In this document: piece after piece, positions 4,615-61,119 of the stretch
Layout of the letters: the number at the start of each line of letters is the position of its first letter
How positions within the stretch are numbered: the first letter of the stretch is position 1
DNA from: Candidatus Parcubacteria bacterium
GTDB taxonomy: Bacteria; Patescibacteriota; Minisyncoccia; UBA6257; JAGOQP01
Direction: 5' to 3'
Length of the DNA stretch: 64,000 bases
Assembly: GCA_025999395.1 (NCBI GenBank)
Contig: AP024682.1
Span: forward strand, 69,386 to 133,385
Position numbers and translations under genes: made by a program
Notes under the pieces: generated by a model
Seen by the model: the letters and a program-made list of their open reading frames with translations, nothing else
Told to the model about the DNA's origin: nothing
Database searches by the model: none

Positions 4615-5862
4615 CTAAGAGGATAAAAACTTGATTATTCTTTTGGCGGCTAATTCTAATTCTTTTTTTGTAGTCGGTCTTCCAAAACTAAACCGCAAAC
4701 TTCTTTTCGCCCTTGTTTCATCAAAGCCTAAAGCCTTGAGAACATAAGAGGGTTTTTCTAATCTTTGAGAGCAAGCCGAAGTAGAAGAAACAGCAATTCC
4801 CATTAAATCCAAAGCTTGAACTAAATTTTCTTTGTAAGGGAGAAAAAGGTTAAGAATATGAGGAGACCATTTGTCTTTTTGTCCCAAAGGAGAATTAGTT
4901 TCAATTAAAGGAAGTTGACTTTTTAAAAGTTGAAAGAAATAAAGAGCCAGATCCCAAATTCTCTGATATTCTTTTTCTCTTAAAGAAGCAGCAATTTCAA
5001 CCGCTTGAGCAAAAGCCCAAGCACTAGCAACATTTTCTGTTCCGGCTCGCAAACCAAATTCTTGATCTCCACCGGTAACTAAAGGAGCAATTAGAGAAGG
5101 CGATTCTTGAAGGAAAGATTTTACATATAAACAAGCAATCCCTATCGGTCCATAGATTTTATGAGAAGAAAGAGTCATTAAATCCACCCCACTTTTTAAG
5201 ACATTCAAATCAAAATAATTTAAAGCCTGGGAGGCATCAGTGTGAAAAAGAGGATAAAGATTAAAAGGAGAAGAAATTTTTTGAGATTTTTTCTCTTCTT
5301 TAAAATCTTTAATAAGACGAGCAATTTGAGAGATGGGCTCCAAAGAACCAACTTCATTATTTACCCACATCACCGAAACTAAAATCGTTTCCGAATCCAA
5401 TTCTTTTTCTAGCGTCTTTAAATCGATAATTCCCTCTCGATTAACAGGCAAATAAACAACTCTTAAAGCTCCATCTTTTTCCAGGTCCTTAGCAGTTTCC
5501 AATAAGGAAGGATGCTCAATTGAAGAAAGGATAACTTTAGGGGCTTGAAAAAATTTTTCTTCTCGAGGGCAGTTGATTTTTTTGAAATGCAAAAGATTGC
5601 GAAAGTAGGCTTTAAGTATTCCCCTTAAAACTAAATTATTTGCCTCTGAAGCTGAAGAGGTAAAGATAATTTCTCTTTGATTGGCTAATAAAATCTTGGC
5701 AATTCTTGCTCGAGCCTCATCTAAAAAAGCAAGTGACTTTTGTCCAAAAAAGTGAAGAGAGCTGGGATTTCCAAAATTCTTCTCGTAAAAAGAAACCAGA
5801 GTTTTTAAAACTCGCTCATCTAAAGGAGTGGAGGAAGCATAATCTAAATAAATTGGCTTCAT
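4615..5862 (-). CDS. cysteine desulfurase (class V aminotransferase, NifS/IscS-like)
   Basis: 415 aa; PLP-lysine region SSHKIYGP; C-terminal active-site Cys region SSTSACS. Confidence 0.85.
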   Translation of the reverse strand: MKPIYLDYASSTPLDERVLKTLVSFYEKNFGNPSSLHFFGQKSLAFLDEARARIAKILLANQREIIFTSSASEANNLVLRGILKAYFRNLLHFKKINCPREEKFFQAPKVILSSIEHPSLLETAKDLEKDGALRVVYLPVNREGIIDLKTLEKELDSETILVSVMWVNNEVGSLEPISQIARLIKDFKEEKKSQKISSPFNLYPLFHTDASQALNYFDLNVLKSGVDLMTLSSHKIYGPIGIACLYVKSFLQESPSLIAPLVTGGDQEFGLRAGTENVASAWAFAQAVEIAASLREKEYQRIWDLALYFFQLLKSQLPLIETNSPLGQKDKWSPHILNLFLPYKENLVQALDLMGIAVSSTSACSQRLEKPSYVLKALGFDETRAKRSLRFSFGRPTTKKELELAAKRIIKFLSS

Positions 5863-6458: not shown

Positions 6459-6974
6459 TTAAACATGTTTGTCGGCTACACAAGAAGCCGCATAGCTTTC
6501 TGGCTTAGTTTTAAAATTAAAGTTATAAGCTCGAATCATTCCAGTAACCTCGGAAATTAAAGAACTACTCTTGCCGTTTTGACCAATATCAACATGAACC
6601 TCAAAATCAAAATTAATATCGGCTTCTTTTTTAAGTAACTCCAGCAAATCAATAGCAGTATTTAGAGATAAAAGTACTTCTTCAATAATCCGATCTCTTA
6701 GGGTATAAAACTTCCCTCCCTCAATTCTCTTCCAGAAATAGCGCCCGCCATTGCCTACTCGATGAACTACAATAGCGGTCACAAAGTCAGCGCTTTTATC
6801 AGGGAAAAGCTGAGAATCGCTGCCAATAATAATTTTATAAAAAGACTCCGGCTTTTCTTTAATAAAGCCGATAATTTCTTCAACCAGTTGGTTTCGATTC
6901 AACTTTTGACCGTTAGTAGCGAAAAAGTAATCTTCCATCACTGGTAGTTTATCTTTCTTAATCAAAAATTTCAA
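6459..6974 (-). CDS. DUF458/YkuK-family RNase H-like protein
   Basis: 171 aa; IIGSDSQ and TAIVVHRVGNGGRYF regions match my memory of the YkuK family. Confidence 0.5.
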   Translation of the reverse strand: MKFLIKKDKLPVMEDYFFATNGQKLNRNQLVEEIIGFIKEKPESFYKIIIGSDSQLFPDKSADFVTAIVVHRVGNGGRYFWKRIEGGKFYTLRDRIIEEVLLSLNTAIDLLELLKKEADINFDFEVHVDIGQNGKSSSLISEVTGMIRAYNFNFKTKPESYAASCVADKHV

Positions 6975-6994
6975 CTCAAGGCAATTTAAAAAAA

Positions 6995-38035: not shown

Positions 38036-38947
38036 ATGAAAGAGATTCAAAAATACCTCAAAGAATACCTTGATTACTTAGAAATAGAAAAAAACCGCTC
38101 TCCAAAAACAGTGGAAAACTATCGTCGTTATTTATCAGAATTCATTAATCAAGAAAAAATCTCTTCTCTTGAAGAAATAGATCAAGATAAAATTCGCCAC
38201 TTTCGAATTTGGTTGGCTCGACGCCAAGGAAAAGAAGAAGGGTTTCTTAAAAAAAACACCCAAAGCTACTACATCATTGCCTTAAGAAATTTTCTCAAGT
38301 ATTTAATTAAAAGAAATGTAAAACCAAATGTACTTCCCGAACAAATCGAATTACCCAAAATTCCTCAAAGACAAATAGAAATTATAGAATATAGCGACTT
38401 GGAAAGATTTTTGAATGCTCCTCAAGGAGATTCTTTGAGAGCTTTAAGAGATAAAGCAATTCTAGAAATACTTTTTTCTACCGGCCTGAGAGTTTCTGAG
38501 CTTTGCTCTCTTTCCCGCTACCTTAATATAGAAAAAGGAGAAATTACCGTTCGGGGAAAAGGGGGAAAGTTAAGAGTCGTTTTTCTTTCTCCACGCGCTC
38601 AAAAGGCTTTAAAAAATTATTTAGAAAAAAGAAGTGATGCCGAAGAAGCTTTATTTGTTAGTTTAACCAAATCTAAAAATCCTAAGGTAATCGGAAGAAT
38701 TCTTCCTCGCACCGTTCAAAGAATAGTTAAATATTACGCCAAGAAAGCAGGAATTGTAGGAAAGGTTACTCCTCATCAATTGCGTCATCAATTTGCTACT
38801 GATCTCTTGTTAAATGGAGCTGATTTGCGCTCTGTCCAAGCACTCTTGGGTCATGCCAACATCTCTACCACCCAAGTCTATACCCACCTTACTAATAAAG
38901 AGCTGAAAGAAATTCACAAAGCTTTTCACGGGCGAAGAAGAAAATAA
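38036..38947 (+). CDS. tyrosine site-specific recombinase, XerC/XerD-like
   Basis: 303 aa; N-terminal SAM-like domain; catalytic R...HxxR...Y with LGHANISTTQVYTHL. Confidence 0.85.
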   Translation: MKEIQKYLKEYLDYLEIEKNRSPKTVENYRRYLSEFINQEKISSLEEIDQDKIRHFRIWLARRQGKEEGFLKKNTQSYYIIALRNFLKYLIKRNVKPNVLPEQIELPKIPQRQIEIIEYSDLERFLNAPQGDSLRALRDKAILEILFSTGLRVSELCSLSRYLNIEKGEITVRGKGGKLRVVFLSPRAQKALKNYLEKRSDAEEALFVSLTKSKNPKVIGRILPRTVQRIVKYYAKKAGIVGKVTPHQLRHQFATDLLLNGADLRSVQALLGHANISTTQVYTHLTNKELKEIHKAFHGRRRK

Positions 38948-38951
38948 GGTG

Positions 38952-39032
<81 letters not shown>

Positions 39033-41246: not shown

Positions 41247-41630
41247 TTACATCAATCCTCCTCCGGAAGAAAGCGATCTTTGGACAAAATAAACAATGGT
41301 GTAGGAAAGAAGTCCAACCGCAATTCCAATCACTGCATACATCAACATTTTTTTGGCTGTGCCAACCTTCGTTTGATCTCCTTTACTGGTGACGAAGTTG
41401 TAAGCCGCCAAAATAATAAACAGCGTAGCAACGATGAAAAGAATAGTGTAAATCCATTGCACAATCTTAACAAAGACTCCTACTCCCTCACCAATTGTTG
41501 TTGGACCAGTTACTGGCACTGGTGGAGGAGGGGGTTGACCGGGAGTAAACTGAGCAAGAGCAACTAAAGAACCAGTTATTCCCCAAACCAGCAAAAGAGT
41601 GCTAGCACCTAATAAAATCTTTTTAATCAT
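41247..41630 (-). CDS. paralog 1 of 7: small secreted two-helix membrane protein (VirB2/TrbC-pilin-like architecture)
   Basis: 127 aa; signal peptide; Pro-rich variable segment (GQPPPPPVPVTGP); conserved C-terminal module ILAAYNFVTSKGDQTKVGTAKKMLMYAVIGIAVGLLS. Confidence 0.6.
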   Translation of the reverse strand: MIKKILLGASTLLLVWGITGSLVALAQFTPGQPPPPPVPVTGPTTIGEGVGVFVKIVQWIYTILFIVATLFIILAAYNFVTSKGDQTKVGTAKKMLMYAVIGIAVGLLSYTIVYFVQRSLSSGGGLM

Positions 41631-41730
41631 AGTTATTTTTTATTCTCTTTTAGTTATTTTTTATTCTCTTTTATAAACGACCTTTCTTAAAAATTAATTT
41701 TAACTTACTTTGAAATTGTAGCATATTTTT

Positions 41731-42123
41731 TTAAAAAAGGAAGAATCTCATCTGCCCAGAACCCTCTAACAAGAAGTTTTGTATTAAAATTGAAATGCCC
41801 CCCGACATTAAAGCGACAACGATTGCCACAATCGCCCACTTAATCTGATTTTTGGCGTTTTTAACTTTTGTTTCATCTCCTCGGGAAAAAACAAAGTTGT
41901 AGGCTGCTAGAATAATAAACAAAACCGCCACTAAAAAGAAAAAGGTATAAACATAGCCAATAATTCGATAAATCATCAGCCAAATCTGGTTTGGAGCCTC
42001 TATTGGTGAGCCAGTAATATTTTGAGGACCCTGGGGAGTAAATCTAGCCGCTTCTGTCAATAACAGATATCCCCAAAAAAACACGAGGAAAAATATTGAA
42101 ATAAGCTCTTTTTTGTTTTTCAT
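41731..42123 (-). CDS. paralog 2 of 7: small secreted two-helix membrane protein
   Basis: 130 aa; signal peptide; variable N-region; conserved module ILAAYNFVFSRGDETKVKNAKNQIKWAIVAIVVALMSGGISILI. Confidence 0.6.
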   Translation of the reverse strand: MKNKKELISIFFLVFFWGYLLLTEAARFTPQGPQNITGSPIEAPNQIWLMIYRIIGYVYTFFFLVAVLFIILAAYNFVFSRGDETKVKNAKNQIKWAIVAIVVALMSGGISILIQNFLLEGSGQMRFFLF

Positions 42124-42149
42124 AAAAAATATTAATATAGACCTTCTTT

Positions 42150-42563
42150 TTAAGAGGCGGCGGAAAGAAAGCTTCCAATAATAAGAGAAATTCCTCCCGA
42201 CACCAAAGCGACAATAATTGCGATCACCGCATATTTAATTTGAGCTTTGGCTGTTTTTAATTTGTTTTCATTAGTCCCTCCTGTCAAAAAATTATAAGCC
42301 GCTAAAATCAAGAAAAGAATAGCGACAACAAAAAAGGTGTCGAAAATAACAATTACAATATTGTAAACTAAATCGTAAACATCTTCATAATGTTTTAAGG
42401 GAGAGGCTTGCTCTATTTCACGAGGTACAATATTAATATCCTGGGGTTTAATAATAGCCTTTACTTTATTTGCATATGAGACTAAAAGATAGAAAGAAAT
42501 AATCGCCCAAGAAAGAAGTTTGTCTTTTTTTTCTAAGAAAAAATTCATAAAAATAAAAAACAA
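42150..42563 (-). CDS. paralog 3 of 7: small secreted two-helix membrane protein
   Basis: 137 aa; conserved module ILAAYNFLTGGTNENKLKTAKAQIKYAVIAIIVALVSGGISLIIGSFL. Confidence 0.6.
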   Translation of the reverse strand: MFFIFMNFFLEKKDKLLSWAIISFYLLVSYANKVKAIIKPQDINIVPREIEQASPLKHYEDVYDLVYNIVIVIFDTFFVVAILFLILAAYNFLTGGTNENKLKTAKAQIKYAVIAIIVALVSGGISLIIGSFLSAAS

Positions 42564-42575
42564 AATTTTAATTTA

Positions 42576-43001
42576 TTATGAACCAGCTTTTTCAAGAAAA
42601 GAACCAATAATCAAAGAAACACCACCCGATATTAATGCCACCACAATTGCAATCACCGCATACTTAAGTTGAGACTTAGCTTTTCTTAATTTATCCTCAT
42701 TAGTACCGCCAGATAAAAAGTTATAAGCCGCCAAAAGAATAAACAAAATAGCCGCGGCGCCAAAGGCCATATAGATGTAATTTACAATGCTTACAATTAC
42801 ATTCTCCACAAACTTATAAGCATCTGCTTCACTACCTGTTACCACTGACTGCTCCTTGAAAGGAGCAATGGTTTTTTCATCAAGAGCAGCAAAGGCAATC
42901 ATATTTCCGAAAAATAAAAAGAAAAAGAAAAAAGCTAAACCATTCTTCAATAAAAGATGGAGAGAAGCCTTTTTTGTTTTTTTTAGGAACTCTTTTCTCA
43001 T
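42576..43001 (-). CDS. paralog 4 of 7: small secreted two-helix membrane protein
   Basis: 141 aa; conserved module LLAAYNFLSGGTNEDKLRKAKSQLKYAVIAIVVALISGGVSLIIGSFL. Confidence 0.6.
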   Translation of the reverse strand: MRKEFLKKTKKASLHLLLKNGLAFFFFFLFFGNMIAFAALDEKTIAPFKEQSVVTGSEADAYKFVENVIVSIVNYIYMAFGAAAILFILLAAYNFLSGGTNEDKLRKAKSQLKYAVIAIVVALISGGVSLIIGSFLEKAGS

Positions 43002-43044
43002 AAGCCTCTATAAAAAAATAACTCCTAATTCTTGATTAATCAAC

Positions 43045-43428
43045 TCAACTTCCCGCTGATTGAAGAAAGCTTTTGATAATAAGAGAGACTCCTCCCGCTA
43101 CCAAAGCAACAACAATGGCAACAACCGCAAATTTCAATTGGTTTTTTGCTTGCTCAACTAACTTTGCGTCCTGCCCTGCCCTTAGATAAGTAAAAGCAGC
43201 CCATAGTATTGCGCCCACCGCCGCTATAAAGAAGATCGTGTACATATAACCAACAATTCTTTGAAGAACACCGATAATATCATTAACACTTTTTATTGGG
43301 GAATCAATTTGGTCATTATTTTGGTTATTATTACTATCCGCCCCATAAACAGAAAAAGCTCCCAACAAACCCAAAGCCAACACTATTAAAAGGTAATAAG
43401 CTCTTTTAAGATAGAAAGTCTTCTTCAT
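43045..43428 (-). CDS. paralog 5 of 7: small secreted two-helix membrane protein
   Basis: 127 aa; Asn/Gln-rich variable N-region; conserved module WAAFTYLRAGQDAKLVEQAKNQLKFAVVAIVVALVAGGVSLIIKSFL. Confidence 0.6.
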   Translation of the reverse strand: MKKTFYLKRAYYLLIVLALGLLGAFSVYGADSNNNQNNDQIDSPIKSVNDIIGVLQRIVGYMYTIFFIAAVGAILWAAFTYLRAGQDAKLVEQAKNQLKFAVVAIVVALVAGGVSLIIKSFLQSAGS

Positions 43429-43466
43429 ATTCTAAATACTAACATCTTAATTTTAAAAAGTAAAAA

Positions 43467-43865
43467 CTAAGGCAAAACCTGTTCTACTTTAGATGAATCT
43501 ATTCCCAAAATTTCAGCCAAGATATAAATAATTCCACTAGAAATTAAAATCACTACCGCTCCAATAGCAGCGTAGGTGAGAGTTTTTTTGCCTTGTTTAA
43601 ATTTATTTTCATTATCTCCCGCGGTAAGCATTTGAAAACCGCCAATCAAAAACATAATTGTTAAAATTGGCATCGAAACTTTAATCATATAGTTAATGGT
43701 ATCTTTAAGAATGGTAGAAAAGGTTCTCCCTCCCAAGGGATTGTGCAATTCCACAGTTTCGCTTCCGCTATCAGCAGGACCCCCGGGTTGACCTCCGCTT
43801 TGAGCAAAAGAATTCTGCGCTTTTAAAACAAAAAAAAGAAAAATCCAAAATAATTTTTTAATCAT
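43467..43865 (-). CDS. paralog 6 of 7 (divergent): small secreted two-helix membrane protein
   Basis: 132 aa; Gly/Pro-rich variable N-region; module FQMLTAGDNENKFKQGKKTLTYAAIGAVVILISSGIIYIL. Confidence 0.55.
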   Translation of the reverse strand: MIKKLFWIFLFFVLKAQNSFAQSGGQPGGPADSGSETVELHNPLGGRTFSTILKDTINYMIKVSMPILTIMFLIGGFQMLTAGDNENKFKQGKKTLTYAAIGAVVILISSGIIYILAEILGIDSSKVEQVLP

Positions 43866-43923
43866 AAAAATTTAATTTGAAAAATTATATCACTTATTCT
43901 AAAAAATAAAAACTTTTTTGTGC

Positions 43924-44367
43924 TTACTTTTGAATATTTAAAAATCCCACTAAAGTATCAACAATTAGCCAAGCCCCAAAAGCAATCAATAAAGCAATTA
44001 TAACCGACCTGATATAATCCTTTCCCTTAGAAAAGCGAGACTCGTTTCCTGCCGAAGTCATCATCAAAAATCCTCCCACAATAATCCAAATAACCCCTAC
44101 CGGCAAAGCAATATAAAACAAAGCAAACTGAATAATTCTGTCGACCATCACCCAGAAATGAGGAAAGGTGCAGTAAACCCCATTATATCCGCAAGGAACC
44201 AGACCTTCGTTGCTACTGCACTCAAGTCTGGAGTTTTCATCACAAGGAACCGCCAAAACACTCGAGGAAAAGATACTAAAAAAAGCCAATAGTACTGGGA
44301 GAAAAAGAAAAATTTTTTTGGGGAAAGAAAAAAGATTCATCTTTTTCTTTATTTTAATTGAAAACAA
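43924..44367 (-). CDS. paralog 7 of 7 (most divergent, Cys-rich N-region): small secreted two-helix membrane protein
   Basis: 147 aa; mature N-region has 5 Cys (PCDENSRLECSSNEGLVPCGYNGVYC); module FLMMTSAGNESRFSKGKDYIRSVIIALLIAFGAWLIV. Confidence 0.5.
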   Translation of the reverse strand: MFSIKIKKKMNLFSFPKKIFLFLPVLLAFFSIFSSSVLAVPCDENSRLECSSNEGLVPCGYNGVYCTFPHFWVMVDRIIQFALFYIALPVGVIWIIVGGFLMMTSAGNESRFSKGKDYIRSVIIALLIAFGAWLIVDTLVGFLNIQK

Positions 44368-52592: not shown

Positions 52593-52632
52593 TTATGGAC
52601 AAAAACTCAAGCTCGGTTGCTAATAAAATTTG

Positions 52633-52705
52633 TCGGCGCGGCAGGACTCGAACCTGCGACCAATCGTGTATAAGACGACCGCTCTACCAACTGAGCTACG
52701 CGCCG
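52633..52705 (-). tRNA. tRNA with anticodon UAU (Ile-like; reads AUA)
   Basis: Hand fold: acceptor CGGCGCG/CGCGCCG; D-arm GCTC-AGTTGGTA-GAGC; anticodon arm GTCGT-CTTATAC-ACGAT; T-arm GCAGG-TTCGAGT-CCTGC; CCA not encoded. Confidence 0.65.
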
Positions 52706-53893: not shown

Positions 53894-54934
53894 TTAAGAA
53901 AGGGCTTCGATAATTTCTTCCAAACTCAAAACGAGAGGATCTTTGTCGTTATAAATCCAAATTCGGCCTCGAATAAACTTTCCTTGAAATTTATTCCCCA
54001 ACTTATTCTTAATTCGTTCTTCATCAAAATCTCTATCCTTTAAAGTTACCGCAAAACTTTTTTGAGGAGTAAAGTTAATAATGCCATCGTATTTGACATA
54101 AGCAGCCGAGGAGCCGACTCTTAACTCATTATTAACATTGACAACCACTTTTCCATAAAAAGTATCAATAACCTTTCCTTCTTTTTCCATTCGTTCCAAA
54201 GTTTCCATTGATTCCTCTACAATTTTTTTCTGTTCCAAAGCGGCCTTACCCAATCCGTATTTCTCCAATTCTTCCAAAGTTAATTCTTCGGTGGGAGACT
54301 CGTGTTCTTGAAAATAAGCGTAAAGAATATCAAAGTCTAAAGAGCGTTGAAGACCAAGAATAGTTTTCCAGCTCCTTAAAAATTCCTCGGGAGGGATTCG
54401 GCGATTATCAATAGCTGTTACAAATTGAACCAAGCGATCTAGGGCGGGAGATTTTTCTAACAAACCCAAATCCGCCATTGTTTTGTAAACAATCTCGGCA
54501 GTTGAGGTTACTTCTTTGGCGCCCGGCGCGTGATGATCAAAATAAGCAGTATAAGTTGGCTCTTCATAAACCGCTCCGAATTTATCGCCGGTATCGAGAT
54601 TAATTGCTCCCTCTAAATATTCTCCCGGTTTCACATACTTAAGATTGGTAGTATCGATCCCGGCCATTCTTAAAAGACCCAACGCCACCTTACCATCTAA
54701 ATCAGTGAAGGGGCGGAGAACTTGTTTTCCTTCTTTCTGATCGAATTGCAATACTCCCGAAACCGCAAATTCTTTCCAATATTTCTTGGTGGCCTCCTTA
54801 AATTTTTCATCTGCCTCCTTTAAAGTAGCGGCGTTTAACTCCTCCCAAGAAGAGACTTTATCTAAGGTAATTTTAGCTGCCTCTCGAGAGTATTGATACT
54901 TTTGCTCTTCAAAATTTTGTTTGTTTTCGTTCAT
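53894..54934 (-). CDS. hypothetical protein (possible degenerate DHH-like motif)
   Basis: 346 aa; soluble; contains DTGD...YFDHH, which faintly resembles DHH phosphoesterase motifs II-III; otherwise unrecognised. Confidence 0.4.
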   Translation of the reverse strand: MNENKQNFEEQKYQYSREAAKITLDKVSSWEELNAATLKEADEKFKEATKKYWKEFAVSGVLQFDQKEGKQVLRPFTDLDGKVALGLLRMAGIDTTNLKYVKPGEYLEGAINLDTGDKFGAVYEEPTYTAYFDHHAPGAKEVTSTAEIVYKTMADLGLLEKSPALDRLVQFVTAIDNRRIPPEEFLRSWKTILGLQRSLDFDILYAYFQEHESPTEELTLEELEKYGLGKAALEQKKIVEESMETLERMEKEGKVIDTFYGKVVVNVNNELRVGSSAAYVKYDGIINFTPQKSFAVTLKDRDFDEERIKNKLGNKFQGKFIRGRIWIYNDKDPLVLSLEEIIEALS

Positions 54935-55165
54935 ATTTTTATTTGGTTAATTTTATTTGAGCTCGTTTACCAAAGCATTTTACACTACACCTGATAATAA
55001 TTCTAATGCTTCTACCATTTTATAATGGCCAGAAAATAATCCTGCTTAGCTAAGGATTTACTATGGGGTTTTTAACGATCAGGTGTGTGACACAGCGTCA
55101 GAAAAGTCACTTTCCGCATGAAATCTAGCTATTTTTAACATTTCCTTCGTTTTGCGACATATGTT

Positions 55166-55221
55166 AAAAAAAGCTAGTATTTATGCGGAAACTCACTTTC
55201 CGCATAAAATCTAGCTTTTTT
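55166..55221. repeat. nested ~55-bp palindrome (AAAAAAGCTAG-tATTTATGCGGAAA-ctcac-TTTCCGCATAAAAt-CTAGCTTTTTT); a half-site copy lies at 55108..55130
   Basis: Read directly from the sequence: a 13-bp inverted repeat nested inside an 11-bp inverted repeat. The right arm recurs 86 bp upstream. Confidence 0.8.
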
Positions 55222-55256
55222 GAAAATCACCCATTTTTACCCCTAAAAAATGACTA

Positions 55257-55280
55257 AAAATGTTTCACGTGAAACATTTT
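55257..55280. repeat. 24-bp perfect palindrome AAAATGTTTCACGTGAAACATTTT (copy 1)
   Basis: Exact dyad read from the sequence; an identical copy lies 227 bp downstream. Confidence 0.85.
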
Positions 55281-55357
55281 TGTCAAAAATTCGATTAATT
55301 GGCACAAATCACTTTCGGCTAAAAATGTTGGCTTTATACACTTTGAATATTTTGCTG

Positions 55358-55395
55358 AAAAAAATCCGGCAATCTACTACATTGCCGGATTTTTT
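55358..55395. terminator. strong hairpin, bidirectional-terminator-like (AAAAAAATCCGGCAAT-ctactac-ATTGCCGGATTTTTT)
   Basis: 15-bp perfect stem flanked by an A-run and a T-run; a third copy of the ATTGCCGGAT arm lies at 55446..55455. Confidence 0.55.
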
Positions 55396-55483
55396 AGCTA
55401 ACAATTAAAAAATTGAGATTTTTAGCGAAAATTTTTAATTGATGATTGCCGGATTCGTATAATTTTGTCGCTTTCTCGAAAAT

Positions 55484-55507
55484 AAAATGTTTCACGTGAA
55501 ACATTTT
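55484..55507. repeat. 24-bp perfect palindrome AAAATGTTTCACGTGAAACATTTT (copy 2), just upstream of the -35 of the YraN-family gene
   Basis: Exact copy of the 55257..55280 palindrome; a putative TTGAAC-16nt-TAGAAT promoter follows at ~55511..55541. Confidence 0.85.
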
Positions 55508-55549
55508 TGTTAATTTTGAACTTATATATTCATATTGTAGAATATTGAT

Positions 55550-56098
55550 ATGGATAAAAAAGAGGTTGGATTCACAGGAGAAACCATTGCCTGTGGATAT
55601 CTTGAGAAAAAGGGGTATCACATAATAGCAAGAAATTATCGAACGAAATTTGGAGAGATAGATATAATCGCTAAATCACCAGAAAAAATCTTGGTATTTT
55701 TTGAAGTAAAGACACTCTTAATGAATAATAACCATCCGGATTCTAACAAATTGAGTTATCCACAGACATCAGACAATGTTGTGAATAATCGGTGGATAAT
55801 TCGGCAATTGTCATATTTAAAAAATATAGTTTTAAAGCCATATTATAAAATTCTTGGTAAAAAAAGCGGCAATAAAGCGGCAATGAAAATATTGCCGGAT
55901 ATCGATAGAAACGACAGATTCCTCCCGGAAGACCAAATTTCACATTCAAAAATGAGGCGCTTTAAAAGAATTTCTCTCTGGTATGCTAATCTTAATCCGT
56001 CGCTTACAAAAGATAATGGCTTCCGTTTAGATGTAATTGCAATAGAAATGAAAGATAAAGATCATTACACAATTAGACACTATGAAAACATAACTTAG
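55550..56098 (+). CDS. YraN-family (UPF0102) endonuclease-like protein with ~60-aa internal insertion
   Basis: 182 aa; the N-terminal G.TGE..A..YL...GY.I.ARNYR...GEIDIIA......VFFEVK and the C-terminal RLDVIAIE match the UPF0102 core, split by a ~60-aa insert; leaderless-looking start. Confidence 0.65.
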   Translation: MDKKEVGFTGETIACGYLEKKGYHIIARNYRTKFGEIDIIAKSPEKILVFFEVKTLLMNNNHPDSNKLSYPQTSDNVVNNRWIIRQLSYLKNIVLKPYYKILGKKSGNKAAMKILPDIDRNDRFLPEDQISHSKMRRFKRISLWYANLNPSLTKDNGFRLDVIAIEMKDKDHYTIRHYENIT

Positions 56099-57388: not shown

Positions 57389-57616
57389 ATGTTAACACAA
57401 GAAATTTTTACCTTAAAAAGAGGTATCGTGGTCAGTCAATTGGAAGAAGAGGAAGAAGATTACATCGAGGACGAAGACGAATTAGAATCTGAAGAAGAAC
57501 TTGAAGACGAAGAAGGAGAAGAAGAGGGAGAAGACGAAGAAGAGATGGAGGAAGGAGAAGAAGGAGAGTTAGAAGATTTCGGAGATGAGGAGATGGGAGA
57601 AGAGTTTGAAGAATAA
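57389..57616 (+). CDS. small highly acidic protein (Glu/Asp low-complexity), hypothetical
   Basis: 75 aa; ~20-aa ordered N-terminus followed by ~55 aa of mostly E/D; own promoter-like TTGACA-16nt-TATATT at ~57290; terminator follows. Confidence 0.4.
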   Translation: MLTQEIFTLKRGIVVSQLEEEEEDYIEDEDELESEEELEDEEGEEEGEDEEEMEEGEEGELEDFGDEEMGEEFEE

Positions 57617-59839: not shown

Positions 59840-60961
59840 CTAAGAAGATCTAATTGGCATTACAATGTAAACAAAAGTTTGATCTCCCACCGCTTTAATT
59901 AAACTGGCTTTTTCTTCTCCATTTAATCCCCAAAAAATCTCTTCTGACTTAAAATTTTTAATTCCATCTAGTAAAAATTTCCAGTTAAAAGTAATTTGAC
60001 TAACACTACCTTTAATTTTAGCGGGTAAAAGATATTCATTTTCTCCAAATTCTGAACTAGAAGAGGAAATTTTTATATTTTTTAAATTATCACTAACCTC
60101 AAAACGGACCTCGTTTAGGCGATTAGAAAAAGAGCTGGTGAGTTTTAAAGCATTAATAAAATCCTCTTTTTCCAAAACAATTTCTGTTTCAAAGGATTTA
60201 GGAATTACCATCTCATAATCCGGAAAATTTCCTTCTATTAAGCGAGAAATAATTGAGGTTTGTTGAGTTTCGAAAAGAACCTGATTTTCTTCGAAAAAGA
60301 TTTTGATATTTCCTTCCTTTAAAGAGGAAAAAATTTTAATCACTTCTTGAATAGTTCTTAAAGGAATAATAAAAGAAACCTCTTTTTCTAATTGAGTCTC
60401 AAATTTTTTAGTAGTAATTGTTTTTTCTGCTAATCGAAAACTATCAGTAGCCACCAACTTAATTTGGTTATCTTTAAAAGAAAAAAAGACTCCGGAAAGT
60501 TCGGGACGAAATTCTGAAGTTTGGCAAGCAGGAACAACATAAAGCAAGCTTTCTATAAAGACACCACTTTCAATAGTAAAAAAGTTGTTCTTTCTTCTTT
60601 CTACTTGAGGGATAATTGGATAATCGTCTTTAGGAACGGTAGTGATTCGAGCTTTGTAATTATCGGTACTTATTAGTAAATTTCCCTTTTTAAGTTCTAA
60701 ATTTACCCTTTCAAAAGAGAGATTATTAATGATTTGAGAAAAAATTTGATAAGGAATTACTACTGATCCCCCCTCAATATTTTTACTAGAAACAAAGTGA
60801 GTAATTCCAATTTCTAAATCAGTAGCCGACATTTTTAATCCTCCGTCAGTTGTTTCTAAAAGAAAATTCTTTAAAACCGGAAGATTACTAGATTCTTTTC
60901 TAGCTCCTGAAATTATCGATAATCCTTCTTTTAAATTAGTTTTTAGTGCGACAACATTCAT
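59840..60961 (-). CDS. dnaN: DNA polymerase III beta sliding clamp
   Basis: 373 aa; three-domain beta-clamp pattern; located immediately downstream of dnaA. Confidence 0.9.
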   Translation of the reverse strand: MNVVALKTNLKEGLSIISGARKESSNLPVLKNFLLETTDGGLKMSATDLEIGITHFVSSKNIEGGSVVIPYQIFSQIINNLSFERVNLELKKGNLLISTDNYKARITTVPKDDYPIIPQVERRKNNFFTIESGVFIESLLYVVPACQTSEFRPELSGVFFSFKDNQIKLVATDSFRLAEKTITTKKFETQLEKEVSFIIPLRTIQEVIKIFSSLKEGNIKIFFEENQVLFETQQTSIISRLIEGNFPDYEMVIPKSFETEIVLEKEDFINALKLTSSFSNRLNEVRFEVSDNLKNIKISSSSSEFGENEYLLPAKIKGSVSQITFNWKFLLDGIKNFKSEEIFWGLNGEEKASLIKAVGDQTFVYIVMPIRSS

Positions 60962-61119
60962 ATCTTCTTCTATTGCTTTAATTATAAAGATAGTAGTAGT
61001 TTTAGTTAGGTTTGTGTTTTTTGGGGAAAATTTATTCTAACTAATTAAGACCTTTGTTTTTTTTAATTCTGATTTTTTATAAGGTGGGGAAGGGTTGTTG
61101 ATTGACTGGGGAAAAGAAA

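Follow-up and report, generated by a model that had tools for sequence, protein, structure and literature searches.

The window, i.e., the whole 64-kb stretch of DNA analyzed here from the 562-kb genome of a Parcubacteria (CPR) bacterium, contains a 615-bp spacer (30% GC versus 36% for the window) between a minus-strand gene for a 346-aa protein and yraN (Table 1). Within this spacer lie two exact copies of a 24-bp perfect palindrome, AAAATGTTTCACGTGAAACATTTT (55257-55280 and 55484-55507, 227 bp from start to start), as the original prediction had stated, together with copies of a short motif termed here the M box (TCYGGCAA) and a three-part hairpin module (55103-55227), and DnaA-box-like 9-mers extend from its right edge into yraN. 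To the right of the palindrome pair, at about 4.3-8 kb, are dnaN-dnaA-rpmH-rnpA-yidC, an origin-side synteny (dnaN, dnaA, etc.) that is the same in the related lineages L027, L030, and L033. The minimum of the window's cumulative G-C (GC-skew) curve falls at 55 kb, which is the position of the palindromes.

Table 1 Features of the spacer, yraN, and the origin-side genes, in window coordinates
Feature	Position	Strand	Details
Variable left part of spacer	54935..55084	-	Contains the dyad CTTAGCTAAG, probably due to chance
Hairpin module, unit 1 (copy of 3' arm plus T-run)	55103..55141	+	Pairs with 55161-55199 (39 nt, 85% complementary)
Hairpin H2	55164..55221	.	A-run, GCTAG...CTAGC stem, T-run; bidirectional-terminator shape
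Putative parS site 1 (core)	55261..55276	.	TGTTTCACGTGAAACA; extended perfect palindrome 55256-55281
Third unit copy, weak	55305..55343	+	62% identical; no counterpart in L027
M-box inverted pair	55359..55395	.	TCCGGCAA at 55365-55372 and TTGCCGGA at 55382-55389, 9-nt loop
Single M box	55446..55453	-	TTGCCGGA on + strand; -104 from yraN ATG
Putative parS site 2 (core)	55488..55503	.	Identical core; ends 12 bp 5' of yraN -35 hexamer
yraN promoter	55516..55543	+	-35 TTGAAC, 16-nt spacer, -10 TAGAAT
DnaA-box-like 9-mers (five, <=1 mismatch)	55549..55799	.	At 55549, 55592, 55756, 55780, and 55791
yraN	55550..56098	+	UPF0102 nuclease-fold protein, 182 aa; Pfam PF02021, NCBIfam YraN
M or M-like box in yraN loop	55800		TTCGGCAA; adjoins DnaA-like box 55791-55799
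M or M-like boxes in yraN loop	55866 and 55877		GCGGCAAT; 11 bp apart
M box in yraN loop	55892		TTGCCGGA; loop box group spans 55800..55899
dnaN and dnaA	59840..62493	-	Pfam; dnaN 59840-60961, dnaA 61120-62493
rpmH-rnpA-yidC	Beyond dnaA	+	Pfam; rpmH from visible reading frame

Flanking genes and the yraN promoter

With the -10 hexamer of its promoter ending 6 nt from the ATG, yraN is predicted to give a leaderless mRNA, and a -10-like hexamer lies 6-7 nt 5' of the yraN ATG in six of eight lineages; of the other two, L037 has this spacing only on the assumption that translation begins at a downstream ATG, and L040 departs from it. YraN itself carries an insertion of ~70 aa after its EVKT motif, which is clade-specific and variable in length in the alignment, and its AlphaFold model has pLDDT values >90 in the core and 46-72 at residues ~58-128.

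On the opposite side, the variable left part of the spacer probably supplies, judging from its sequence, the divergent gene with its promoter and 5' UTR; the 346-aa product of this gene had no match in a PDB profile search or in NCBIfam. Two smaller dyads reported from this side needed correction: CTTAGCTAAG, placed at ~54995, actually lies at 55045-55054, and GTGAC-N16-GTCAC is in fact GTGAC-N14-GTCAC (55087-55110). The former is probably a chance occurrence, because a 98%-identical strain has CTTAGTTAAG in its place. This strain (L025; 98.2% identical) has a collinear spacer with 19 differences from the window, 11 of which fall within 54968-55007. Separately, a 52-aa ORF at 55250-55408, which is a gene call in a public assembly and overlaps the first palindrome, was rejected as a gene, given a 1-nt indel in the same strain; it has no Pfam match, and its translated stretch NVSRETF is the palindrome read in frame.

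Two palindromes with the parS consensus

In bacteria, parS is the DNA centromere gripped by ParB, which pulls apart newly copied chromosomes. The 16-bp core of both window palindromes, TGTTTCACGTGAAACA, is identical at 16/16 positions to consensus parS as used by Jalal et al. (bioRxiv 10.1101/724823), and the same 16-bp palindrome is found in the Spo0J sites of B. subtilis and in parS of C. crescentus. Among the matches listed for the 16-mer in the literature, most had ParB/parS as their subject. The Noc-binding site (NBS) consensus, TATTTCCCGGGAAATA, was not matched, and the core differs from it at the positions that discriminate parS from NBS. No other copy of the 24-mer occurs in the 64 kb; a search of the window for its 18-mer core, allowing <=3 mismatches, recovered two sites, both of them the 24-mer copies, a 16-mer search returned the same two, and none of 100 dinucleotide shuffles held two 18-mer-core sites.

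Relatives, as loci of 8-16 kb each, were retrieved via YraN and hence independently of the DNA motif, except for L031, which came from a DNA-pattern scan; all related CPR DNA fetched, by this and other routes, amounts to ~432 kb. The sampling of relatives is thin, and a metagenome scan for CTAGCTTTTTT-N28-58-parS added little, with two loci only, one of them new. Across seven related Parcubacteria lineages, one to eight parS sites each lie directly 5' of yraN, all of them <=480 bp upstream, amounting to 20 sites of which 14 are perfect 16-mers: two in L027 (a Wolfebacteria relative) and in L033, three in L031 and in L035, and one in L030 and in L037, all perfect, and eight in L040 (two perfect and six with one mismatch). 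Elsewhere in these loci no parS with <=2 mismatches was found, the sole 3-mismatch match being at position 1266 of L040. Across the fetched ~432 kb, parS is confined to the yraN-upstream locus. The surrounding spacer is not alignable except for the accessory motifs described below, and YraN identity between lineages is just 35-55%; 16/16 identity of a noncoding element at this protein divergence therefore indicates purifying selection on parS. The upstream 346-aa gene, in turn, was dropped as a synteny anchor since it is not syntenic with the spacer and is absent at this position in relatives; the 22 genome loci and one metagenome locus reached through it contained no parS.

Since the sites match the consensus exactly, have no further copy in the window, are origin-proximal, and are conserved upstream of yraN, we consider it highly probable that both 24-bp palindromes represent chromosomal parS, i.e., origin-proximal, centromere-like loading sites of a ParABS/SMC system on this Parcubacteria (CPR) chromosome. 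Origin-proximal placement is typical of parS sites (review PMC7333895).

Two other readings of the palindromes had been proposed, namely a MITE-like miniature element with the 24-mers as its ends and paired operators at which a dimeric regulator would bind and possibly loop the DNA. The ~250-bp segment between the 24-mers is indeed short, AT-rich, and bounded by identical sequences, but both "ends" are palindromes in their own right, with the sequence of parS, the sister strain L025 shows no insertion polymorphism, no target-site duplication is visible, and relatives hold 1, 2, 3, or 8 sites at irregular spacings. The motifs occur only here, both in the window and in the fetched DNA, and are conserved; the mobile-element reading is refuted on these counts, and we give it next to no credence. 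Very improbable, too, is that the palindromes serve a dedicated non-ParB dimeric transcription factor as two looping operators of a yraN-yebC-ruvC operon. Such a factor would find the second site immediately 5' of a well-defined leaderless promoter, at an offset from the yraN ATG (-62) that is identical in the window and L027; against it, the site is the ParB consensus at 16/16 positions in every lineage, its copy number (1-8) is unlike that of an operator, its location is origin-proximal, and its spacing from the promoter differs between lineages, with the nearest parS starting at -62, -150, -72, -69, -95, -120, or -21 by lineage and the gap from the last parS to the ATG varying from 6 to 134 nt among relatives. 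The operator proposal comes nearest among those of the original prediction in that ParB is a dimeric helix-turn-helix protein that bridges DNA; what does not hold is the role, as that established for ParB is segregation rather than gene-specific regulation, and the distance from site to yraN varies. A regulatory side effect of the second site, sited just 5' of the yraN promoter, is conceivable.

Under the preferred parS reading, a cognate ParB would be encoded elsewhere in the genome: Pfam searches on 59 ORFs (all plausible genes >=100 aa) revealed no ParB or ParA gene in the 64-kb window, and Spo0J and Soj of B. subtilis, as approximate query sequences, gave no tblastn match in the window or in loci L001-L037. 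We infer ParB binding and every biochemical step at these sites, as follows. Each 16-bp palindrome would be recognized by one ParB dimer via its helix-turn-helix domains, and this binding would induce ParB to close, in a CTP-dependent manner, into a clamp that then slides to flanking DNA. Repeated loading would build a partition complex, which would recruit SMC and/or be moved by ParA, such that newly replicated origin regions separate.

In being clustered, multi-copy, origin-proximal, and conserved across related genomes, these sites share the features of known chromosomal parS. They differ in their host, an uncultivated CPR/Parcubacteria genome, in the perfect consensus of both window sites and 14/20 of the relatives' sites, and in a cluster that is fixed 5' of yraN and not near or within parB, whereas parS sites in other phyla are often near or within parB. 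A literature search for published parS or ParB in CPR, Patescibacteria, or Parcubacteria found nothing relevant; a paper on TIGR-Tas mentions a ParB-like gene, which is unrelated. Correctly annotated, the palindromes would be centromere sites that mark the origin-proximal region of a small CPR genome, and they suggest that the canonical ParB-parS recognition code is unchanged in this deeply branching, reduced lineage. Such sites could be used for assembly orientation and origin prediction in CPR, and the ParB/parS pair for tagging or plasmid stabilization in CPR genetics.

M boxes, DnaA-like boxes, and the hairpin module

The palindromes themselves are an ordinary element of known type, and the motif cluster around them is conserved and unexplained; M boxes and the hairpin module in particular are unaccounted for by present ParABS biology, which is a point against parS as a full account of the spacer. 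This entourage (M-box arrays, in-loop DnaA boxes in three frames, and a locus-specific hairpin module) is the more interesting by-product of the analysis.

The M-box inverted pair corresponds to a hairpin with A- and T-run flanks that had been noted previously and is confirmed here at 55359-55395 (18-nt arms, 94% complementary, A6/T6 flanks), as is a further copy of its arm at 55445-55455; another exact copy of ATTGCCGGAT, overlooked in the original prediction, is at 55891-55900, within yraN. The inverted pair, which lies between the parS sites, is conserved in L027, L030, L031, and L033 with variable loops and no T-run, and the single M box has the same offset from the yraN ATG in L027. Within yraN, the relatives' M boxes are found on either strand and in all three reading frames (0, 1, and 2), M boxes directly adjoin DnaA-like boxes in seven of eight lineages, and the box variant shifts in concert at all copies of a lineage (TCCGGCAA, TCTGGCAA, or TTCGGCAA). 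L031 and L033 have a symmetric M-N7-parS-N7-M arrangement, which in L033 forms a 46-bp perfect palindrome (5217-5262); in the window, every M box is more than 30 bp away from both parS sites. A scan of viral contigs for the M-parS-M composite gave no match, and a fourth motif seen in L040, TATTTATGCGG, was dropped for inconsistent recurrence. The M-box motif is real, and its function is what we infer: arrays around parS and beside DnaA boxes suggest binding sites for a DNA-binding factor.

The five DnaA-like 9-mers, of which that at 55756 is a perfect TTATCCACA, form the densest such cluster of the window (~0.05 boxes expected per 250 bp), 5.3-5.6 kb from dnaA. L027, L031, L033, L035, and L040 have boxes at matching offsets, two of those in L033 being perfect and inverted.

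At the left edge, the nested palindrome of the original prediction was recovered as hairpin H2, and its half-site copy 86 bp upstream as unit 1 (87% identical). The 5' arm of H2 is common to the H2 stem and to an alternative helix with unit 1, and these two mutually exclusive helices are kept in five lineages at 84-85% pairing. In the unit1:A' helix, pairing holds in 85% of cells and both partners have changed in 13 pairs, a result reached by 2/500 shuffles, in a test that comprised five sequences and a structure derived from the window; a T-run comes after the A':unit2 helix. Both strands of the module fold far beyond shuffled sequence (z of about -6.3 and -6.7). The module is 100% identical between the window and L025 amid varying flanking spacer, H2 was found at this locus only in the ~432 kb of fetched CPR DNA, and 3' arms are better conserved than 5' arms. 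L031 and L033 carry two complete hairpins in place of the three-part switch, and the weak third unit copy of the window, which relatives lack, is probably a decayed duplicate. With low-to-moderate confidence, we read the module as one complete A-run/stem/T-run hairpin plus the remnant of a second, at the left edge of the centromere module; it is separate from parS and part of the same conserved module.

Origin, structured-RNA, and composite-module readings

Two further readings concern what surrounds parS. The replication origin (oriC) could coincide with the spacer and the 5' half of yraN, or the two could form a box cluster that titrates DnaA or serves regulation, with parS embedded, M boxes bound by an accessory factor of the origin, and unwinding taking place in the AT-rich spacer; this is compatible with parS and concerns the rest of the module. 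The density of the cluster, its recurrence at equivalent positions in five relatives, the adjoining M boxes, and the position of the skew minimum all speak for this, as do a dnaA whose flanks in the window hold no box at <=1 mismatch and a difference in the reading frame of GTGGATAA (TGG-ATA-A in the window versus GTG-GAT-AA in L033). Nevertheless, each lineage has only 2-5 boxes, several of which overlie peptides (ACGYL, SYPQ) that are conserved and written in AT-rich codons, such that conservation of the protein may by itself have produced some of them; no AT-rich unwinding element is conserved between lineages (the AT tract at 55395-55445 is not kept in L027); L030 carries five boxes at classical positions flanking dnaA; the dnaN-dnaA spacer of the window has a DnaA-trio-like TAGTAGTAG and two copies of TGGGGAAAA; and skew and gene orientation suit an origin anywhere in 49-62 kb equally well. 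On this balance, we regard an origin or DnaA-regulatory role as distinctly unlikely. A structured ncRNA, as proposed originally for the spacer at large, finds no support for the 24-mers, no Rfam family gave a match, and we judge it unlikely for the hairpin module (perhaps also for the 55359-55395 hairpin) that it encodes a small structured RNA or a terminator/anti-terminator attenuator. The folding of both strands, the alternative helices with their double-changed pairs and terminal T-run, and the invariance of a locus-specific module are what an RNA would offer, but "covariation" may be concerted evolution of a tandem duplicate, because L031 and L033 carry two complete hairpins, and the smallness of the test, its window-derived structure, and the unequal conservation of the arms weigh on the same side. 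Moreover, no promoter is conserved upstream of the module, and a scan of both strands there revealed none; a candidate inside the module (TTGCGA-N17-TAGTAT) was rejected, its spacing not being kept in L033 and its predicted transcript lacking the hairpin. There is also no regulated gene downstream, since yraN has its own leaderless promoter. At the gathering score, Rfam 15 reported only tRNAs in the window and six orthologous loci, and in E-value mode all matches on the spacer were far under their gathering score.

Tentatively, and as a possibility that we would not favor over its negation, a composite cis-module, conserved in and particular to Paceibacteria-type CPR, may be built around the parS cluster; in it, a TCYGGCAA factor, a new protein, would physically couple the ParB centromere and DnaA. 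The layout comprises M boxes in helical-turn-spaced arrays, symmetric M-parS-M palindromes, and adjoining DnaA boxes in the disordered yraN loop. If these are real binding sites, they would represent an undescribed component of origin/centromere organization in bacteria not yet culturable and a clear example of a cis-acting DNA code laid over coding sequence.

P1 parS is a composite plasmid centromere with BoxA heptamers and BoxB hexamers and likewise combines a ParB-type core with a second short motif, here the M box; by comparison, the window's M boxes keep their distance from parS, with arrays also far from it and in yraN, recognition of M boxes by ParB finds no support here, and the likeness of the BoxB reverse complement TGGCGA to TGGCAA is that of a 6-mer and could be chance. 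DnaA-box clusters outside oriC are known from B. subtilis (DBCs) and E. coli (datA), and the present one is likewise a small DnaA-like cluster a few kilobases from dnaA, partly within coding sequence, but its putative boxes are interleaved with a lineage-specific motif in the variable loop of a protein-coding gene.

H2 and the M hairpin resemble bidirectional intrinsic terminators in their A-run/GC-containing stem/T-run shape. They differ in that H2 sits in a divergent intergenic region, which has no need of a terminator, and is locus-specific and conserved in sequence at 35-55% protein identity, and in that the M hairpin has no T-run in relatives. No upstream transcription unit ends at either hairpin, and a terminator consensus scanner reported none at either position, presumably because the stem is lengthened by the A/T runs. 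The same terminator shape occurs at three other gene ends within the window.

Paired palindromes and their counterparts in relatives

The spacer upstream of yraN holds the two identical 24-bp perfect palindromes of the original prediction, as well as its nested palindrome with a half-copy and its A6/T6-flanked hairpin with an additional arm, while the small dyads exist, but with CTTAGCTAAG misplaced and the spacer of GTGAC-N14-GTCAC miscounted; CTTAGCTAAG is disrupted in a 98%-identical strain. With up to 3 mismatches allowed, the 18-nt core of the 24-mers occurs at these two sites only in 64 kb (two sites in 0/100 shuffles), and a search of the window with the 16-nt core gave the same outcome.

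The 16-bp core TGTTTCACGTGAAACA is identical at every base to the consensus parS used in structural and specificity studies of ParB, the parS-binding segregation protein (bioRxiv 10.1101/724823), and the literature containing this string was, among the matches listed, mostly on ParB/parS. The related Noc site TATTTCCCGGGAAATA, which specificity positions distinguish from parS (bioRxiv 10.1101/724823), mismatches the window core at those positions. The 24-bp palindromes are very probably parS centromere sites of the ordinary canonical type, here in a new host lineage, and we infer that ParB would bind them, because the consensus is perfect and maintained by selection. Pfam searches of 59 ORFs (every plausible gene of 100 aa or more) revealed no ParB or ParA encoded in the window, tblastn with B. 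subtilis Spo0J/Soj queries gave no match in the window or fetched loci L001-L037, and a literature search yielded no paper describing parS in CPR bacteria.

Relatives were fetched via YraN homologues without using the DNA motif, with L031 instead added by a DNA-pattern scan, and every YraN-fetched locus tabulated here carries parS immediately upstream of yraN; parS is absent from a Gottesmanbacteria yraN locus. Beyond the yraN-upstream stretch, the related loci (8-16 kb) are free of parS-like sites at up to 2 mismatches and have a single one at 3 (L040, position 1266).

parS sites in related CPR loci
Locus	Lineage and setting	YraN identity	parS sites
L027-29	Wolfebacteria GW2011_GWC1_43_10; gyrA-to-yidC fully syntenic	55%	2 perfect
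L030		43%	1 perfect
L031	from DNA-pattern scan		3 perfect
L033		43%	2 perfect
L035/36		42%	3 perfect
L037		34%	1 perfect
L040/41	Paceibacterota; near rnpA-yidC-jag	35%	8 in 470 bp, of which 2 perfect and 6 one-mismatch

Lineages differ in how many parS copies they have (1-8), in the spacing of the sites (35-227 bp), and in the distance from the sites to the yraN start, a pattern consistent with a centromere and evidence against an operator dedicated to one promoter; the prediction of sites for a dimeric protein is in part correct. A MITE bounded by the 24-mers failed every test, showing no dispersal, polymorphism, or target-site duplication; in the sister strain (L025, 98.2% identity) the spacer is collinear and both parS sites are kept. 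Nor does a structured ncRNA hold for the 24-mers. Separately, the eight-site array of L040, on Paceibacterota contig Ga0265297_10000188, adjoins yraN upstream and is unusually dense for a chromosomal centromere.

Motifs around parS and inside yraN

Real potential for novelty lies only in the conserved module around parS, namely M-box arrays, DnaA boxes superimposed on the coding sequence of a protein loop, and a locus-specific hairpin module. The A6/T6-flanked hairpin is an inverted pair of the 8-mer TCCGGCAA, a variant of the M box (TCYGGCAA, reverse complement TTGCCRGA), and the four exact copies of ATTGCCGGAT in the window all fall within 55364-55900. Clustering of TCYGGCAA upstream of and inside yraN was seen in 6/7 lineages examined (13/14 copies in 10 kb of L031). 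The variant is TCCGGCAA in the window, L027, L030, and L031, TCTGGCAA in L033 and L035, TTCGGCAA in L040, and TTGGCAA in L037, and the copies of one lineage all change together. The window and L027 share offsets of M boxes (-185, -168, -104, +342), parS (-62), and DnaA-like boxes (+42, +206, +241). Direct M-box arrays are spaced at 10-13 bp, and in L031 and L033 parS is flanked symmetrically, as TTGCCRGA-N7-parS-N7-TCYGGCAA, forming a 46-bp perfect palindrome in L033; this M-N7-parS-N7-M arrangement recalls plasmid centromeres with two motif types, e.g., P1 BoxA/BoxB. The terminator-like T-run of the window M hairpin is missing in relatives. Further, yraN is apparently leaderless in most lineages, with a -10-like hexamer 6-7 nt 5' of the ATG in 6/8 (L037 fits with a downstream ATG only, L040 does not) and no Shine-Dalgarno before the ATG in the window, L027, L030, L031, L033, or L035, so that upstream M boxes would lie outside the yraN mRNA. 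Taken together, the arrays, offsets, lineage-wise change, symmetry around parS, missing T-run, and leaderless yraN favour a putative DNA-level protein-binding motif rather than an RNA helix.

Alignment revealed a clade-specific, length-variable insertion after the EVKT motif of YraN, with AlphaFold pLDDT of 46-72 versus >90 for the core. The underlying DNA carries DnaA-box-like 9-mers, five of which (at most 1 mismatch) form the densest such cluster in the 64 kb of the window, and these directly adjoin M boxes in 7/8 lineages; the variable loop is largely made of such motifs. As M boxes in yraN occupy all three reading frames and both strands, and an inverted DnaA box differs in frame between the window and L033, it would follow that selection acts on the DNA and not on the peptide, while protein conservation could by itself have produced the boxes over the ACGYL and SYPQ codons.

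The hairpin module lies also 5' of the first parS in L027, L030, L031, and L033 (as two complete hairpins in L031 and L033), has 100% identity to that of the sister strain, where substitutions gather in the left part of the spacer, and was found at this locus only in ~432 kb of fetched CPR DNA. The 5' arm of its full hairpin (A') is able to pair with either unit, and both alternative helices are ~84-85% paired across five lineages, with both sides changed at 13 pairs of the unit 1:A' helix (equalled by 2/500 shuffles) and 5 pairs of the terminator-like helix (86/500), although this apparent helix conservation is only suggestive because it involves five sequences and a structure taken from the window, and because the duplicate may have evolved in concert. 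No promoter or regulated gene was evident from a promoter scan and yraN promoter comparison.

Origin-proximal position and neighbouring genes

Rightward of the spacer lie yraN, yebC, ruvC, an acidic ORF of 75 aa, and the gene for a class A PBP, beyond which come dnaN, dnaA, and plus-strand rpmH-rnpA-yidC; gyrA lies leftward. Genes are nearly all on the minus strand until 49.2 kb and mainly on the plus strand thereafter, and cumulative G-C is lowest in the window at 55 kb, within a 49-56 kb plateau; this places the parS pair near the origin, the usual location of parS (PMC7333895). That the spacer/yraN region is itself oriC is possible though improbable, since DnaA boxes per lineage are few, no unwinding element kept between lineages was found, five boxes flank dnaA in L030, and the window dnaN-dnaA spacer holds a run of TAGTAGTAG and the motif TGGGGAAAA twice, while the skew plateau cannot discriminate between candidate positions. 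The dnaN-dnaA spacer is a candidate classical oriC; it contains GATAGTAGTAGT, a DnaA-trio-like run, and the TGGGGAAAA motifs read TTTTCCCCA on the opposite strand.

Coordinates of features (window positions unless a related locus is named)
Feature	Position (strand)	Remark
Integrase gene	38036-38947	
tRNA-Leu	38951-39032	
T4SS_pilin/TrbC-matching paralogues	41247-44367 (-)	seven in tandem, ~130 aa each
tRNA-Ile	52632-52705 (-)	anticodon TAT (ARAGORN)
346-aa gene	53894-54934 (-)	
Spacer	54935-55549	615 bp, 30% GC
Dyad CTTAGCTAAG	55045-55054	
Hairpin module	55103-55227	3' arm + T-run, then full A-run/GCTAG...CTAGC/T-run hairpin
Half-copy (unit 1)	55103-55141	
Nested palindrome	55164-55221	
52-aa ORF	55250-55408 (+)	over parS1
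24-mer AAAATGTTTCACGTGAAACATTTT	55257-55280; 55484-55507	parS1; parS2
M hairpin	55359-55395	additional arm 55445-55455
-10-like hexamer and yraN start	55538-55552	TAGAAT, TATAAT or TAAAAT; equivalent site in L027, L030, L031, L033, L035
DnaA-box-like cluster	55549-55799	
yraN	55550-56098	
Loop motif region	55756-55899	L027 8207-8350; L031 4468-4543; L033 5492-5554; L035 6216-6277; L040 7185-7208
Post-ruvC ORF	57389-57616 (+)	
dnaN	59840-60961 (-)	
dnaN-dnaA spacer	60980-61119	
dnaA	61120-62493 (-)	
M-parS-M	L031 4141-4186; L033 5217-5262	
parS array	L040 6524-6995	
tRNA-like sequence	L027 6846-7050	tRNA-Val 6909-6981

The 52-aa ORF called in a public assembly is almost certainly not a gene, because a 1-nt indel shifts its frame in the sister strain; it has no family match. 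The upstream 346-aa gene is strongly conserved among CPR bacteria (60-80% identity over many lineages) yet not syntenic with the spacer, and none of 22 genome loci fetched via it holds parS-like sites. Its product has no match in Pfam, NCBIfam, or PDB, and, judging by its invariant DTGD and DHH residues, it may be a divergent phosphoesterase of the DHH type. Conserved in position, a small ORF (59-85 aa) separates ruvC from the PBP gene in the window, L027, L030, and L033; the window copy is extremely acidic, with a Glu/Asp-rich tail and no family match.

In another part of the window, around the tandem T4SS_pilin/TrbC-matching paralogues, the 40-42 kb segment stands out with 44% GC versus ~36% elsewhere and lies near an integrase gene and tRNA-Leu. 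The TAT anticodon of tRNA-Ile is an uncommon bacterial way of reading AUA, whose usual decoder is a lysidine-modified CAU tRNA. In L027, a complete tRNA-Val apparently lies within another tRNA-like sequence (GGACGATTAGCTCAGTTGG ... GGTTCAAGTCCTGCATCGTCCA), which could be a tRNA interrupted by a tRNA-carrying insert.
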